Positions 1 through 4,627 of a DNA stretch of 4,627 nucleotides are shown here, one piece after another. The position numbers and the translations under genes are program-made. Source of the DNA: a virus (lineage: Duplodnaviria; Heunggongvirae; Uroviricota; Caudoviricetes); the IMG/VR virus record IMGVR_UViG_3300029095_000166; one strand, 5' to 3'. The notes under the pieces were generated by a model. It saw nothing but the letters and a program-made list of their open reading frames with translations, ran no database searches and was not told where the DNA came from. Positions within the stretch are counted from its first letter, which is position 1; each line of letters begins with the position of its first letter.

Positions 1-2153
1 CGGGGGCAGGCACACCGCGCCGGGCTGTGGCTGATTAAAACAGAACTGCTGGAAACGCAGACCGTGGATTTCAGCGTCGGCGCAGAAGGGCTTCGCCATG
101 TACCGGGCGATGTTATTGAAATCTGTGATGATGACTATGCCGGTATCAGCACCGGTGGTCGTGTGCTGGCGGTGAACAGCCAGACCCGGACGCTGACGCT
201 CGACCGTGAAATCACGCTGCCATCCTCCGGTACCACGCTGATAAGCCTGGTTGACGGGAGTGGCAATCCGGTCAGCGTGGAGGTTCAGTCCGTCACCGAC
301 GGCGTGAAGGTAAAAGTGAGCCGTGTTCCTGACGGTGTTGCTGAATACAGCGTATGGGGGCTGAAGCTGCCGACGCTGCGCCAGCGACTGTTCCGCTGCG
401 TGAGTATCCGTGAGAACGACGACGGCACGTATGCCATCACCGCCGTGCAGCATGTACCGGAGAAAGAAGCCATCGTGGATAACGGGGCGCACTTTGACGG
501 CGACCAGAGCGGCACGGTGAATGGTGTCACGCCGCCAGCAGTGCAGCATCTGACCGCCGAAGTCACTGCAGACAGCGGGGAATATCAGGTGCTGGCGCGA
601 TGGGACACACCGAAGGTGGTGAAGGGCGTGAGCTTCCTGCTCCGTCTGACCGTGACAGTGGATGACGGCAGTGAGCGGCTGGTCAGCACAGCCAGGACGA
701 CGGAAACCACATACCGCTTCACACAACTGGCGCTGGGGAACTACAGGCTGACAGTCCGGGCAGTAAATGCGTGGGGGCAGCAGGGCGATCCGGCATCGGT
801 ATCGTTCCGGATTGCCGCACCGGCAGCGCCGTCGCAGATTGAGCTGACACCGGGGTATTTTCAGATAACCGCCACGCCGCATCTTGCGGTTTATGATCCG
901 ACTGTACAGTTTGATTTCTGGTTCTCGGAAAAGCGGATTGCGGATATCAGGCAGGTTGAAACCACAGCACGCTATCTTGGCACGGCGCTGTACTGGATAG
1001 CCGCCAGTATCAATATCAAACCGGGCCATGATTATTATTTTTACGTTCGCAGTGTGAACACTGTTGGCAAATCGGCATTCGTGGAGGCTGTCGGTCAGCC
1101 GAGTGATGACGCATCCGGCTATCTGGATTTTTTCAAAGGAGAGATAGGGAAAACACACCTGGCTCAGGAGTTGTGGACGCAGATTGATAACGGTCAGCTT
1201 GCGCCTGACCTGGCTGAAATCAGGACNNNNNNNNNNNNNNNNNNNNNNNNNNNNNNNNNNNNNNNNNNNNNNNNCAGAGTGCAGCGATCCAGCAGATACA
1301 GAAGGTTCAGGTTGATACAAATAATAACCTGAACAGCATGTGGGCTGTGAAGCTGCAGCAGATGCAGGACGGGCGCCTTTATATCGCGGGTATTGGTGCC
1401 GGTATTGAGAACACCCCTGACGGCATGCAGAGTCAGGTGCTGCTGGCGGCGGACAGGATTGCGATGGTTAATCCTGCGAATGGCAACACAAAGCCGATGT
1501 TTGTTGGTCAGGGCGATCAGATATTCATGAACGAAGTGTTCCTGAAATATCTGACGGCTCCCACCATTACCAGCGGCGGTAATCCTCCGGCATTTTCCCT
1601 GACACCGGACGGGCGGCTGACGGCGAAAAATGCGGATATCAGCGGTAACGTGAACGCGAACTCCGGGACGCTCAACAATGTCACGATTAATCAGAACTGC
1701 CGGATTCTGGGAAAACTGTCAGCCAACCAGATTGAAGGCGATATTGTTAAAACGGTGGGAAAAGCCTTTCCGAGAAATGGCAGTTATGCCAGCGGTACAA
1801 TAACGGTCACTGTGTACGATGACCAGGCTTTTGACCGTCAGATAGTAGTCCCCCCCGTTCTGTTTCGTGGGGGTAAGCATGAAAACTTCAACAGCAACAA
1901 CCAACAGTCATACTGGTATTCAACCTGTAAGCTGCAGGTACTGAAGAACGGACAGGAAATCTTTCAGCAACCCGCGACGGATGTCAGCAGGGTATTTTCA
2001 TCAGTCATTGATATGCCTGCCGGACACGGCCATGTCACCCTGACTTTCAATGTTTCTTCATATGGTGCTAATAACTGGACGCCAACGACCAGTATCAGCG
2101 ACCTTCTTGTTGTTGTGATGAAGAAATCTACAGCCGGTATCAGTATCAGTTGA
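1..2153 (+). CDS. J: Host-specificity / central tail fiber protein J (lambda gpJ family), 5'-partial; reading frame interrupted by the N run at 1227-1274
   Basis: The ORF is open from base 1 (frame of 64..1332) with no stop, so the gene starts upstream of the window. The translation (..[69 protein letters not shown].., FN3-like segments such as [32 protein letters not shown]) matches my recollection of lambda J and its E. coli prophage homologues. After the N run the J-like sequence continues in a different frame from 1275 ([41 protein letters not shown]...[20 protein letters not shown]...) to TGA at 2151-2153. The ORF-track pieces 64..1332 and 1338..2153 are therefore one gene; the tail after the X run in the first piece (RVQRSS...) is a frame artefact. 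Confidence 0.9.
1227..1274. other. Run of 48 N (assembly gap or masked bases) inside the J coding sequence
   Basis: Directly visible. The flanking J frames differ (pre-gap codons start at positions congruent to 1 mod 3, post-gap at 0 mod 3), so the true missing segment must have a length congruent to 1 mod 3 if J is intact. Confidence 0.95.
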
Positions 2154-2202: not shown

Positions 2203-2206
2203 GGAG
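2203..2206 (+). promoter_or_regulatory. Shine-Dalgarno-like GGAG for the side tail fiber gene
   Basis: GGAG lies 5 nt upstream of ATG 2212. Confidence 0.5.
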
Positions 2207-2211
2207 TGAAT

Positions 2212-4233
2212 ATGGCAGTACAGATTTCAGGCGTGCTGAAAGACGGTGCAGGAAAACCGATACAGAACTGCACCATTCAGCTCAAAGCAAAACGTAACAG
2301 CACCACGGTTGTGGTGAACACGGTGGCCTCAGAAAATCCGGATGAAGCCGGACGTTACAGCATGGATGTCGAGTATGGCCAGTACAGCGTTATCCTGCTG
2401 GTTGAAGGTTTTCCGCCTTCACATGCCGGGACCATCACCGTGTATGAGGATTCTAAGCCGGGGACATTGAATGATTTTCTGGGCGCTGCAACAGAAGATG
2501 ATGTTCGTCCGGAGGCACTGTATCGTTTTGAAAAGATGGTGGAAGAGGCGGCACGCAACGCTGAAGCCGCCTCTCAGAGCGCAGCGGCAGCAAAGAAATC
2601 CGAAACAGCAGCGGCATCGTCCAGGAACGCGGCGAAAACATCAGAGACGAATGCAGGTAACAGCGCGAAAGCGGCAGCTTCTTCAAAAACAGCCGCACAA
2701 AATGCAGCAACAGCGGCAGAACATTCAGAGACAAATGCCCGTGCGTCAGAGGAAGCCTCCGCAGACAGTGAAGAGGCTTCCCGCCGTAATGCAGAGTCAG
2801 CCGCTGAAAATGCCGGAATCGCCACCACAAAAGCGCGGGAGGCCGCAGCAGACGCAACAAAGGCCGGGCAGAAAAAGGATGAGGCTCTGTCGGCAGCGAC
2901 ACGAGCAGAAAAGGCGGCAGACCGCGCAGAAGCCGCAGCGGAAGTGACTGCAGAGCCCTATGCGAATATAGTGCCGCCGCTGCCTGATGTATGGATACCG
3001 TTTAACGATACACTGGATATGATTACGGGGTTTTCGCCATCATATAAAAAGATTGTTATTGGTGACGATGAAATAACAATGCCAGGCGACAAGATTGTTA
3101 AGTTTAAACGTGCTTCAACAGCAACGTATATTAATAAGTCCGGCCAACTCAAGCTTGCTGAAGTTGATGAACCGCGATTTGAGCGCGATGGCTTATTGAT
3201 TGAAGGACAGAGGACAAATTATCTGAGGAACTCAAATAAACCAGACTCATGGACTGTTCATTCCGCACTGAATAAAACATTTGGCACTGATAAACAGGGG
3301 TTCAATTATGCCACGGTGACACCCACGGAAAGTATAGTGGGAACAACAGGTGGCTATACTGTGCATGGTGTGGTTGCAGCAGACAGATTCCCGCTGGCAA
3401 GTGGTGAATGTTTCACTTTTTCGTGCCGGGTTAAAGGCGCTAAAGCACGATGCAGGTTAAGAGTTTCAGTTATTATTGGTGGAACAGATACCTTCTCTGC
3501 TGACTCTTATCTTGATCTGGATACCCGGATCGCAACAGTAAGCGGTAATACATCCCTTATAACAGCCAAAGCTGAACAACAGGGCGAGTGGACCTACTAT
3601 GAGGCCACTTATACAGCTAATACGGACATTGATACCGTTAACTGTGCTTTTTATATGACAAATAAAATAAGTAATGAGCCATTCTATGATGACTCAACAT
3701 TAACCATGACGACGCCGCAAATTGAACTGGGCAATACGGCATCGTCATTTATTGTAACTACAATGCCAACAACACGCGCAAGTGATGTGGTTACTATCCC
3801 CTCGGAGAATAACCTGTCAACACGGCCTTTTACGGTATTGTGCGAAGTAAGGAGGAACTGGAGTACACCGCCCAATGTTGCGCCAAGGATATTTGATGTT
3901 GGAGGGCACAGTATTGATGATAATTATTTATCGCTGGGGTTTGTTTCAACAGGAAAGATAAGCGCCAACGTAGGAATGGTTCAGCCACAAATAGCCGCAG
4001 ATGGAGAAAGGTTCATTGTGGGGGTGAGAGCTAAATCCGATTTATCAGTAAATGCAATATGCAATGGTAATTATACAACAAACCTTAATGGTAAAATATT
4101 TGGCATTACAGCAACATCGTACCGGTTTGGTGGGCAGACCGCAGCAGGAACGCGTCATTTGTTTGGACACATCAGAAATTTCAGAGTCTGGTTTAAAGAA
4201 TTAAATGACAGGCAAATAAAGGAGGCAGTATGA
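2212..4233 (+). CDS. stf: Side tail fiber protein, mosaic: lambda Stf-like N-terminal domain and Ala/Ser/Thr/Glu-rich shaft fused to a distinct C-terminal lectin-like receptor-binding module (674 aa)
   Basis: The N-terminus MAVQISGVLKDGAGKPIQNCTIQLKAKRNSTTVVVNTVASENPDEAGRYSMDVEYGQYSVILLVEGFPPSHAGTITVYEDSKPGTLNDFL closely matches my recollection of lambda Stf (orf401). I chose ATG 2212, preceded by GGAG, over the GTG at 2206 reported in the ORF track because Stf homologues begin MAV.ISG. A shaft rich in SETNA-like quasi-repeats follows (about 2540-2950). The C-terminal part (from about 2950) has no resemblance to the lambda Stf / T4 gp37-type distal region and ends with LFGHIRNFRVWFKELNDRQIKEAV, which resembles the terminal beta-strand motif of LamG / concanavalin-A-like jelly-roll domains. 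Stop TGA at 4231-4233. Confidence 0.88.
   Translation: MAVQISGVLKDGAGKPIQNCTIQLKAKRNSTTVVVNTVASENPDEAGRYSMDVEYGQYSVILLVEGFPPSHAGTITVYEDSKPGTLNDFLGAATEDDVRPEALYRFEKMVEEAARNAEAASQSAAAAKKSETAAASSRNAAKTSETNAGNSAKAAASSKTAAQNAATAAEHSETNARASEEASADSEEASRRNAESAAENAGIATTKAREAAADATKAGQKKDEALSAATRAEKAADRAEAAAEVTAEPYANIVPPLPDVWIPFNDTLDMITGFSPSYKKIVIGDDEITMPGDKIVKFKRASTATYINKSGQLKLAEVDEPRFERDGLLIEGQRTNYLRNSNKPDSWTVHSALNKTFGTDKQGFNYATVTPTESIVGTTGGYTVHGVVAADRFPLASGECFTFSCRVKGAKARCRLRVSVIIGGTDTFSADSYLDLDTRIATVSGNTSLITAKAEQQGEWTYYEATYTANTDIDTVNCAFYMTNKISNEPFYDDSTLTMTTPQIELGNTASSFIVTTMPTTRASDVVTIPSENNLSTRPFTVLCEVRRNWSTPPNVAPRIFDVGGHSIDDNYLSLGFVSTGKISANVGMVQPQIAADGERFIVGVRAKSDLSVNAICNGNYTTNLNGKIFGITATSYRFGGQTAAGTRHLFGHIRNFRVWFKELNDRQIKEAV
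2560..2950 (+). repeat. Low-complexity quasi-repetitive coding region (Ala/Ser/Thr/Glu-rich fiber shaft)
   Basis: Protein-level degenerate repeats (KKSETAAASSRNAAKTSETNAGNSAKAAASSKTAAQNAATAAEHSETNARASEEAS...) and DNA-level near-repeats such as tcagagacgaatgc (about 2640) and tcagagacaaatgc (about 2725). The composition bias leaves alternative frames on both strands open (spurious ORFs 2453..2902-, 2471..2947+, 2574..2828-). Confidence 0.6.
4220..4225 (+). promoter_or_regulatory. Shine-Dalgarno AGGAGG for the coupled small ORF
   Basis: AGGAGG lies 4 nt upstream of ATG 4230, inside the 3' end of the fiber gene. Confidence 0.55.
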
Positions 4234-4508
4234 AAGATTTAACTTTGAAATTTCCTGGTAACAGAGAGTTTAAATCCTTCCTGTCATCTCTTGACTGGGA
4301 GGAAGATGAAGACCTCCAGAATAAACTGTTAGTTGATGAAATTGGTTTCACCTACACAGAAACAGGGGTAACAGAAGAGGGAGAACCTGTCTGTATCCGG
4401 AATGACGGTTATTTTGTCAACATTCGCATCCTTGATGACGCGTTTGATGTTTCTGTATTCTCTGATTATGTTGTGGAGCTGGAAACACCGCTTCGTGAAT
4501 GGAGCTGA
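4230..4508 (+). CDS. Hypothetical small acidic protein (92 aa), translationally coupled to the side tail fiber gene; function unknown, candidate fiber accessory or chaperone
   Basis: The ATG at 4230-4232 overlaps the fiber stop TGA 4231-4233 (ATGA arrangement) and has a strong upstream AGGAGG. The ORF is 92 codons, AT-rich like the fiber C-terminal module, and strongly acidic (about 22 Asp+Glu against about 8 Lys+Arg, counted by eye). It does not match my recollection of Tfa family chaperones, which are about 190 aa. Confidence 0.65.
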   Translation: MKDLTLKFPGNREFKSFLSSLDWEEDEDLQNKLLVDEIGFTYTETGVTEEGEPVCIRNDGYFVNIRILDDAFDVSVFSDYVVELETPLREWS

Positions 4509-4509
4509 A

Positions 4510-4515
4510 AGGAGG
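4510..4515 (+). promoter_or_regulatory. Shine-Dalgarno AGGAGG for the downstream membrane-protein ORF
   Basis: AGGAGG lies 5 nt upstream of ATG 4521. Confidence 0.55.
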
Positions 4516-4520
4516 AAATA

Positions 4521-4627
4521 ATGGATATAAGCCCCTTACTTCATGCACTTTGTGCTGTGGCTGCGCAGGTACTGGTTGGTCTTTTTACCGGGAACTGGGC
4601 TTACGGAGCGATAGCCGGTTGTACGTT
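4521..4627 (+). CDS. Hypothetical hydrophobic (probably inner-membrane) protein, 3'-partial (first 35 codons only)
   Basis: ATG at 4521 with a strong AGGAGG upstream, starting 12 nt after the stop of the small acidic ORF. The translation MDISPLLHALCAVAAQVLVGLFTGNWAYGAIAGCT is dominated by hydrophobic and small residues, consistent with a transmembrane helix. The ORF runs off the window, so product identity is unknown. Confidence 0.5.
   Translation, partial: MDISPLLHALCAVAAQVLVGLFTGNWAYGAIAGCT

Follow-up and report, generated by a model that had tools for sequence, protein, structure and literature searches.

Gene organisation of the locus

The DNA stretch considered here (4,627 nucleotides (nt) of the tailed-phage record IMGVR_UViG_3300029095_000166 from IMG/VR; hereafter the window, at its full length) comes from a lambdoid Escherichia prophage, where it makes up the distal end of the late operon, and it carries a small, strongly acidic open reading frame (ORF) of 92 amino acids (aa) directly behind a side tail fibre gene. 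A preliminary description had noted this ORF in the slot where a Tfa chaperone would normally be encoded, and had proposed that it encodes a small fibre chaperone of a new type, an adaptor serving the lectin-like module of the fibre, or a moron such as an acidic DNA mimic or an immunity-like protein. The fibre gene and the genes following it show these features:

2206..4233, + strand: side (lateral) tail fibre gene, 675 aa; tail-attachment domain PF08400 at the N-terminus (aa 3-133), then a shaft rich in Ala, then a globular C-terminal part
2956..3225, + strand: conserved fibre block, aa 251-340 (PDVWIPFND...PRFE..GLLIEGQRTN), from a conservation profile of 21 diverse loci
3226..3720, + strand: variable fibre block of low conservation, aa 341-505, a beta-sandwich like that of gene transfer agent (GTA) head spike fibres and carbohydrate-binding modules (CBM), presumed receptor-binding part
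3721..4230, + strand: C-terminal domain, aa 506-675, LamG/galectin-like, with conserved aa 506-565 and 641-675 (end HLFGHIRNFRVWFKELNDRQIKEAV) and variable loops at aa 566-640
4219..4225, + strand: Shine-Dalgarno motif AAGGAGG for the small ORF, inside the final codons of the fibre (K-E-A) and 4 nt upstream of the ATG
4230..4233, + strand: ATGA start/stop overlap (ATG 4230-4232, TGA 4231-4233)
4230..4508, + strand: small acidic ORF, 92 aa, ATG start, PHROG 1361
4510..4515, + strand: Shine-Dalgarno motif AGGAGG for the next ORF
4521..4627, + strand: membrane protein with two transmembrane segments, first 35 codons of about 97 aa, cut by the window end; PHROG 1443, E=3e-16

The coordinates and the quoted translation of the small ORF agree with the ORF listing, and the junction proved to be as first described, with a 4-nt overlap between the start codon and the fibre stop and a ribosome-binding site of its own just upstream. 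This indicates that translation of fibre and small ORF is coupled. The slot is indeed the one in which lambda carries tfa, straight after stf. With 22 Asp and Glu residues against 8 Lys and Arg, a net charge of -14 and an isoelectric point (pI) of 4.05, the product is also as acidic as had been claimed.

The small ORF is a real gene and not a chance reading frame, as follows from its match to PHROG 1361 (E=6.2e-40; its residues 1-91 align to positions 1-91 of the 92 in the profile), its many homologues, its low ratio of nonsynonymous to synonymous substitution (dN/dS) and a confident structure model. Homologues with 29-98% identity were found by tblastn in 146 phage records, and an exhaustive HMMER search of 1.84 billion representative proteins led to 50 matches at E<=0.001; all genuine family matches in this set have at most 150 aa, and none is fused to another protein. 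The giant proteins P0050, P0066 and P0084, considered as tandem copies of the fold, were rejected, as their scores are the sum of many matches of about 5 bits to PKD and other repeats. For each pair with an estimable synonymous rate, dN/dS was 0.10-0.32; values of 0.16-0.32 within the type represented by the window and phage 21, which has no distal fibre, reflect purifying selection there as well. AlphaFold2 modelling with a 27-sequence alignment gave a single compact alpha/beta domain of the order b-a-a-b-b-b-b-a (pLDDT 93.2, pTM 0.78).

Members of the family have 85-110 aa. M1, L6, F8 and V63 are invariant, and D3, G39, G60, N64 and W91, the penultimate residue, are nearly so. The tabulated members carry net charges of -7 to -16 with one exception, the divergent SA126VB_23 (locus L097, 4001-4267; net charge 0, pI 6.6), which also has the only start that does not overlap the fibre stop, being separated from it by a 1-nt gap. 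For the function of the family, acidity may thus be dispensable.

Linkage to one fibre class

A search with a 15-member family alignment contributed to a set of 103 extracted loci, comprising this window, 80 loci from IMG/VR, four genome loci, and loci from annotated phages and metagenomes. In 102 of these the start codon of the small gene overlaps the stop codon of a long upstream ORF (as ATGA in 60, GTGA in 32 and TAATG in 10 loci), and in the remaining one the two are separated by 1 nt. Three further loci, from the rV5-like myovirus FFH2, the lambdoid phage PhiR55_1 and the P2-like Aeromonas phage 14AhydR10PP, brought the total to 106; all three show a 1-nt overlap and match the family with E=2.7e-17 to 4.3e-27. 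The preliminary description had asked for a neighbourhood analysis of this kind and had named widespread homologues without an adjacent fibre gene as a finding that would speak against a fibre function. A family member lies directly 3' of a fibre gene in 106 of 106 loci, with a start-stop overlap in 105 of them, and no member without such a fibre was found among the loci examined; the linkage is thus obligate. Wherever it is intact, the upstream fibre ends in ...HLFGHIRNFRIWH(K/R/N)xLTDxQ..., which may also be written HLFGHIRNFRIWHxxLTDxQ. Purine-rich motifs resembling Shine-Dalgarno sequences (AAAGAGG, GGGGAGG or GAAGGAG) occupy the equivalent site in other clades.

Both temperate and lytic phages are represented among the loci, as are siphoviruses and myoviruses, and the hosts belong to Escherichia, Salmonella and Aeromonas. 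Carriers include lambdoid phages (e.g. phage 21, CPT_21_23), T1-like Drexlerviridae (tunzivis_75, morffagbaw), T5-like Tequintavirus (IrisVonRoten bas32_0023, YJin-2024a, phC11), a Dhillonvirus (rolling_60), Queuovirinae (JenP1 gp24, SA126VB_23) and a Vequintavirus (FFH2 ORF40). Most of the named carriers are strictly lytic, and a role in lysogenic conversion or as a moron is therefore excluded as the common function of the family. In the annotated loci examined the small gene lies within the tail-fibre gene cluster. Its orthologue in Bas32 is labelled 'tail fiber protein' in the BASEL record, with no stated evidence, and the orthologues in tunzivis and rolling bear a note of VOG7707 (pVOG); VOG7707 and PHROG 1361, to which the small protein belongs, are bookkeeping families with no assigned function.

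Some GenBank records with the cassette are probably mislabelled or contaminated. Those of 'Campylobacter phage C11/C15' (L009, MG065652.1; H140, MG065654.1) and of 'Listeria phage LM 4-11-1 / 4-14-1' (H109/H126; OR847806.1, OR849447.1) all carry fibre DNA of rV5-like or T5-like coliphages together with the cassette.

Relation of the small protein to the fibre

In the PDB, chain 9e7m ('Tail fiber protein') gave a match to the N-terminal part of the fibre (aa 3-96). The variable block is covered by a match to NF048003 (aa 331-525, E=3.5e-18), and the head spike fibre of the Rhodobacter agent RcGTA (6tb9) matches with E=1.7e-22, the homologous region extending around aa 290-530. We read the C-terminal domain as being of LamG/galectin type, because PF13385 (Laminin_G_3) gave a weak match on a homologous fibre and the C-terminus of Bas32 Gp22 has been described as a 'galectin-like domain' (PMC11990801). 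The conserved motif at the fibre end would then be the C-terminal strand of this domain. When the fibre C-terminus was searched against proteins, the 120 matches listed were all E. coli proteins of about 99% identity.

The degree of identity between small proteins is decoupled from that between fibre tips. Comparison of the window with phage 21 gave 91% identity for the small protein and 29-40% for the last 300 fibre residues, and comparison with morffagbaw gave the reverse, with 83% for the last 150 fibre residues and 49% for the small protein. Among 66 unique pairs, small-protein identity correlated best with the fibre segment from -450 to -300 (aa about 226-375; Spearman 0.78), within which the conserved block of aa 251-340 lies. 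The small protein is therefore not matched to the receptor-binding surface and goes with the conserved scaffold of the fibre. Of the proposed adaptor for the lectin-like module, the tie to one fibre class is confirmed by all 106 loci, but a protein tailored to the variable receptor-binding part does not fit the identities found against phage 21.

Comparison with known protein types

Searches of the small protein against Pfam (E<=1) led to no match to Caudo_TAP or any other family, apart from a sub-threshold one to LUD, and none was obtained against NCBIfam or PADLOC. The preliminary description had mentioned a truncated fragment of a known Tfa as a trivial explanation. This can be dismissed, as in addition to the missing Caudo_TAP match the family profile aligned to lambda Tfa with a probability of 0.05% in hhalign and BLASTP gave no alignment. 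Among solved structures no relative of the predicted fold was found. In a library of viral structures the sole matches were uncharacterised proteins of about 65-100 aa encoded by tailed phages that are uncultured (lowest E 5e-5, TM score 0.6-0.7). Telomerase p19, the only match of the family profile in the PDB (E=0.026), was judged spurious.

In lambda Tfa, Mu gpU and P2 gpG (Caudo_TAP, PF02413) the gene likewise stands straight after the side-fibre gene, with a start that overlaps or abuts the fibre stop (stf and tfa overlap in lambda), the partner fibre has no intramolecular chaperone, and the presumed role is C-terminal folding and trimerisation. The small gene shares this position directly downstream of the fibre. 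In contrast to its product, which has 92 aa in one compact domain, Tfa-type proteins have about 175-200 aa in two domains, of which the N-terminal one is conserved; there is no sequence relation, and the fold predicted for the small protein has no solved match. The C-terminal domain of Tfa is reportedly specific for the fibre tip and thus follows it (North et al. 2019), whereas the small protein does not.

Another solution to the folding of trimeric fibres is the Peptidase_S74 domain, as in T5 pb1, the K1F endosialidase, and LtfA and LtfB of DT57C. No such domain was found in the window fibre or in the small ORF, and the small protein differs from it in being a separate, never-fused polypeptide without the S74 motif, for which no autoproteolysis is implied. 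T4 gp57A is all-helical, whereas the model of the small protein is an alpha/beta sandwich; this chaperone, gp38 and the hinge connectors gp35 and gp36 of T4 are similar by analogy only, as small proteins that fold fibres or join fibre halves, and neither Pfam nor PHROG gave a match to any characterised chaperone family. For the branched lateral fibres of DT57C (LtfA-LtfB), which use S74 chaperones, no such small gene has been reported (PMC4728585). Tail-fibre chaperone 'caps' of the Alteromonas phages V22 and A5 are described as encoded separately downstream and as possibly staying on the tip (PMC7289586); hosts and fibre types differ, and the likeness is one of description only.

Proteins of the Ocr and ArdA type, which mimic DNA, are small and very acidic, and the strong negative charge of the 92-aa protein fits them. 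Neither an expression in an early or leading region apart from the structural genes nor a sequence or fold match to a known mimic was found. The signal peptide, lipobox or membrane segment and the lysogen-only or early expression that mark exclusion proteins of the Cor, Llp and Sie type were likewise not evident, and lytic phages carry the gene. On reading the sequence, to which no transmembrane or signal-peptide predictor was applied, no hydrophobic segment or signal peptide was evident.

Among the closest described systems is that of Bas32 (IrisVonRoten), where Gp22 is the proximal fibre and Gp24 a distal, T-shaped fibre (PMC11990801), and where Gp23 is the orthologue of the 92-aa protein (47% identity). 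Infection of K-12 with restored O16 antigen by Bas32 depends on its lateral fibres (PMC8594841). The cassette is homologous, but in the window and phage 21 it lacks the distal fibre. In the literature covered (BASEL, DT57C, the rV5 proteome, aquatic coliphage proteomes, the Hf4s preprint, Cronobacter Drexlerviridae and the Eligo lambda-Stf work) the small protein is uncharacterised; the available virion proteomes are too shallow or come from alleles without the cassette. In PHROG itself, the function of family 1361 is given as unknown.

Distal fibres and the membrane protein

In the lytic siphoviruses and in some lambdoid phages (PhiR49_1, IdasGreatGrand, PhiR55_1 and the loci L094 and L095) a second, distal fibre gene follows the small ORF. 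The order proximal fibre, small ORF, distal fibre is thus found in T1-like, T5-like, Dhillonvirus, Queuovirinae and some lambdoid phages; in FFH2 and the Aeromonas myovirus other genes follow. Example loci are:

L002, 5289-7013: distal fibre
L003, 5292-5966: distal fibre
L099, 4292-4996: distal fibre

The distal fibres vary greatly in length (224 to >700 aa), each carries a Peptidase_S74 intramolecular chaperone, and all share their first residues (about 26; M[AV]TxT[VIN]IPxDITxLK...). In phages that have the same receptor-binding bodies without the cassette, the match begins only at residue 27-49, so that the N-terminal peptide is specific to the cassette. Some distal fibres of only 224-234 aa consist of scarcely more than this docking peptide, a coiled coil and the chaperone.

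The window and phage 21 have no distal fibre, and in both the membrane ORF directly follows the small one. In the complete annotated genome of phage 21 neither a distal fibre gene nor a Tfa gene is annotated, and a six-frame scan for the docking peptide gave no credible match (best E=1.3; positive control 1.5e-21). The small gene is thus kept independently of the distal fibre.

The counterpart of the membrane ORF in phage 21 is CPT_21_24 (L001, 6292-6585). This PHROG 1443 protein closes the cassette in temperate (lambdoid) versions only, where it stands directly behind the small ORF or else behind the distal fibre, and is absent from all lytic versions; Pfam and PADLOC gave no match. Its restriction to temperate phages makes it a candidate for a lysogen-side function, e.g. 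superinfection exclusion. In 14AhydR10PP (L104, 5558-5815) an 85-aa ORF with a lipoprotein-like signal (MKKMMLCAFAVIALSAC...) comes after the fibre and the small ORF and may encode a lipoprotein for receptor masking or exclusion.

Possible function of the small protein

From the constant linkage of the family to one type of side fibre, its members are most likely a new small fibre helper or component and not a bacterial "cargo" gene. More specifically, we would give about an even chance to a dedicated accessory of this fibre class that acts as an assembly chaperone on its conserved C-terminal framework. The proximal fibre lacks both Tfa and an S74 domain, the distal fibre brings an S74 chaperone of its own, and the gene is kept where no distal fibre exists; a dedicated accessory of the proximal fibre, the one component without a known assembly aid, is therefore the simplest function. 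The globular fold without a hydrophobic segment also fits a cytoplasmic partner. Coupled translation would supply about one small protein per fibre chain, which would probably bind the conserved C-terminal framework and not the variable receptor-binding surface, and would most likely help three chains to fold and register into the trimer. The role that Tfa has for lambda Stf would then be filled by an unrelated fold of half the size. The protein may remain bound afterwards and, with a distal fibre present, would lie at or near the joint of the two fibres.

Several observations weigh against such a chaperone. Unlike Tfa-type chaperones, the small protein does not co-vary with the fibre tip, and its slot between proximal and distal fibre genes in most lytic phages would suit a structural joint or adaptor equally well. 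The BASEL authors chose the label 'tail fiber protein' for the Bas32 orthologue, although no evidence is stated, and the AlphaFold-Multimer model of the Bas32 fibre, built of Gp22 and Gp24, is described without the small protein (PMC11990801). Of the options first proposed for a fibre partner, chaperone and structural adaptor would thus both fit the link to the fibre.

A structural cap or adaptor that stays in the virion on the conserved framework of the proximal fibre is accordingly a serious if less probable alternative. Where a distal fibre exists, the protein would form or stabilise the socket for its N-terminal peptide (M[AV]TxT[VI]IPxDITxLK), and in the phage 21 type it would cap the fibre end. 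Its gene lies between the two fibre genes in many clades, the first residues of the distal fibres (about 26) are common only to cassette-bearing phages, the small protein is about as conserved as this docking peptide and far more so than the receptor-binding part of either fibre, and a coupled, roughly equimolar synthesis suits a structural subunit, as does the label of the Bas32 orthologue. However, the gene is kept under purifying selection where there is nothing to dock (phage 21, the window and 14AhydR10PP), the Bas32 description joins Gp24 to the proximal fibre with no small protein in between (PMC11990801), and no virion proteomics was found that would place the protein in particles, the one data set from a phage with this fibre class (mar004NP2) being uninformative with its eight proteins. 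In its most general form, a universal virion-retained 'socket' for the plug of about 26 residues on interchangeable distal fibres, left empty as a cap in phage 21 types, the idea is somewhat more doubtful again.

The protein could also act transiently as a 'chaperone cap', a concept proposed for Alteromonas phage fibres and cited for glycan-targeting phages in PMC11990801 (reference 138 there). Such a cap would aid folding and then shield the fibre, be it inside the cell that produces it or on newly made virions, so that binding to debris or to the lysing host is delayed. The conserved negative charge could mimic an anionic glycan surface, and synthesis of the protein keeps step with that of the fibre, but no co-variation is seen with the variable receptor-binding regions that would have to be masked, one member is uncharged, and there is no sequence or fold likeness to any characterised chaperone, so that we consider this rather unlikely. 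Less still speaks for a moron or other gene of benefit to the lysogen, be it a DNA mimic or a factor for anti-restriction, immunity or superinfection exclusion, possibly together with the downstream membrane protein. Small size and high acidity would suit it, as would the location of the gene in lambdoid prophages, where the late operon has its moron-rich end nearby and a small membrane protein is encoded next to it. Against this, the coupled slot is kept in strictly lytic phages that have no membrane protein, the gene was never found apart from the fibre and lies in the tail-fibre cluster of the annotated loci examined, PADLOC and Pfam gave no match, reading of the sequence revealed no signal peptide or transmembrane segment, and expression would come late, together with the structural genes, at the wrong time for anti-restriction. 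This part of the initial proposal is therefore not upheld, and we regard it as highly improbable.

Implications

That a fibre gene is followed by a small accessory gene is in itself no surprise. The present family is nevertheless unrelated to the known fibre chaperones in sequence and predicted fold, half their size, decoupled from variation of the tip and very widespread in coliphages of practical interest. If it is a chaperone, it would represent a third, structurally unrelated solution to fibre assembly beside Tfa/gp38-type chaperones and S74 domains. If it is an adaptor, the joint of a widespread two-part fibre would be defined, and a true socket would mean a plug-and-socket connection common to T1-like, T5-like, rV5-like, Dhillonvirus, Queuovirinae and lambdoid phages, by which receptor-binding fibres are swapped as cassettes.

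The fibre class is common: roughly one in three complete E. coli genomes has DNA that matches this region. T1-like, T5-like and rV5-like phages, some of the types that serve in therapy or are engineered for it, carry the cassette. When fibres are transplanted, e.g. to lambda-based delivery particles or T5-like phages, it matters whether the 92-aa gene has to go along. With a conserved small protein and variable receptor-binding parts, one accessory gene might serve many fibre specificities, which would simplify modular fibre engineering.

Upstream genes and further observations

Upstream of the fibre the window carries these features:

64..1332 and 1338..2153: C-terminal half of the central fibre J in two ORFs, PF09327 and PF12421
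2172..2191, + strand: terminator-like hairpin and T-run, located past the stop codon of J (2153) and ahead of the fibre gene

J is interrupted by some 51 N at about 1224-1274, and the reading frame differs on either side of them; these are masked or undetermined letters and not biology. The hairpin at 2172-2191 is the upstream boundary of the unit of fibre, small ORF and membrane ORF, and the phage 21 annotation has a terminator at the equivalent spot. From the fibre to the window end no terminator-like site was found on the + strand. With such a hairpin ahead of the side-fibre gene, fibre expression would need read-through by late antitermination.

The G+C content is about 0.61 in J and drops to some 0.40 over the fibre C-terminus and the small ORF, as is typical for an exchangeable module. 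DNA matching 4100-4627 is present in 1769 of 5426 complete E. coli genomes with 80-99% identity, and the RefSeq label of the small ORF in these genomes is 'hypothetical protein'. The fibre shaft (2540-2960, aa about 112-250) is alanine-rich and shows an excess of A over T, with an AT skew of up to 0.54; spurious long ORFs overlap it in other frames and on the other strand (e.g. 2453..2902 on the - strand and 2471..2947 on the + strand). Beyond the cassette, phage 21 carries on its opposite strand a moron for the iron/manganese transporter sitABCD (L001, 6677-10126), which points to a hot-spot for cargo genes in related phages just past the position where the window ends.

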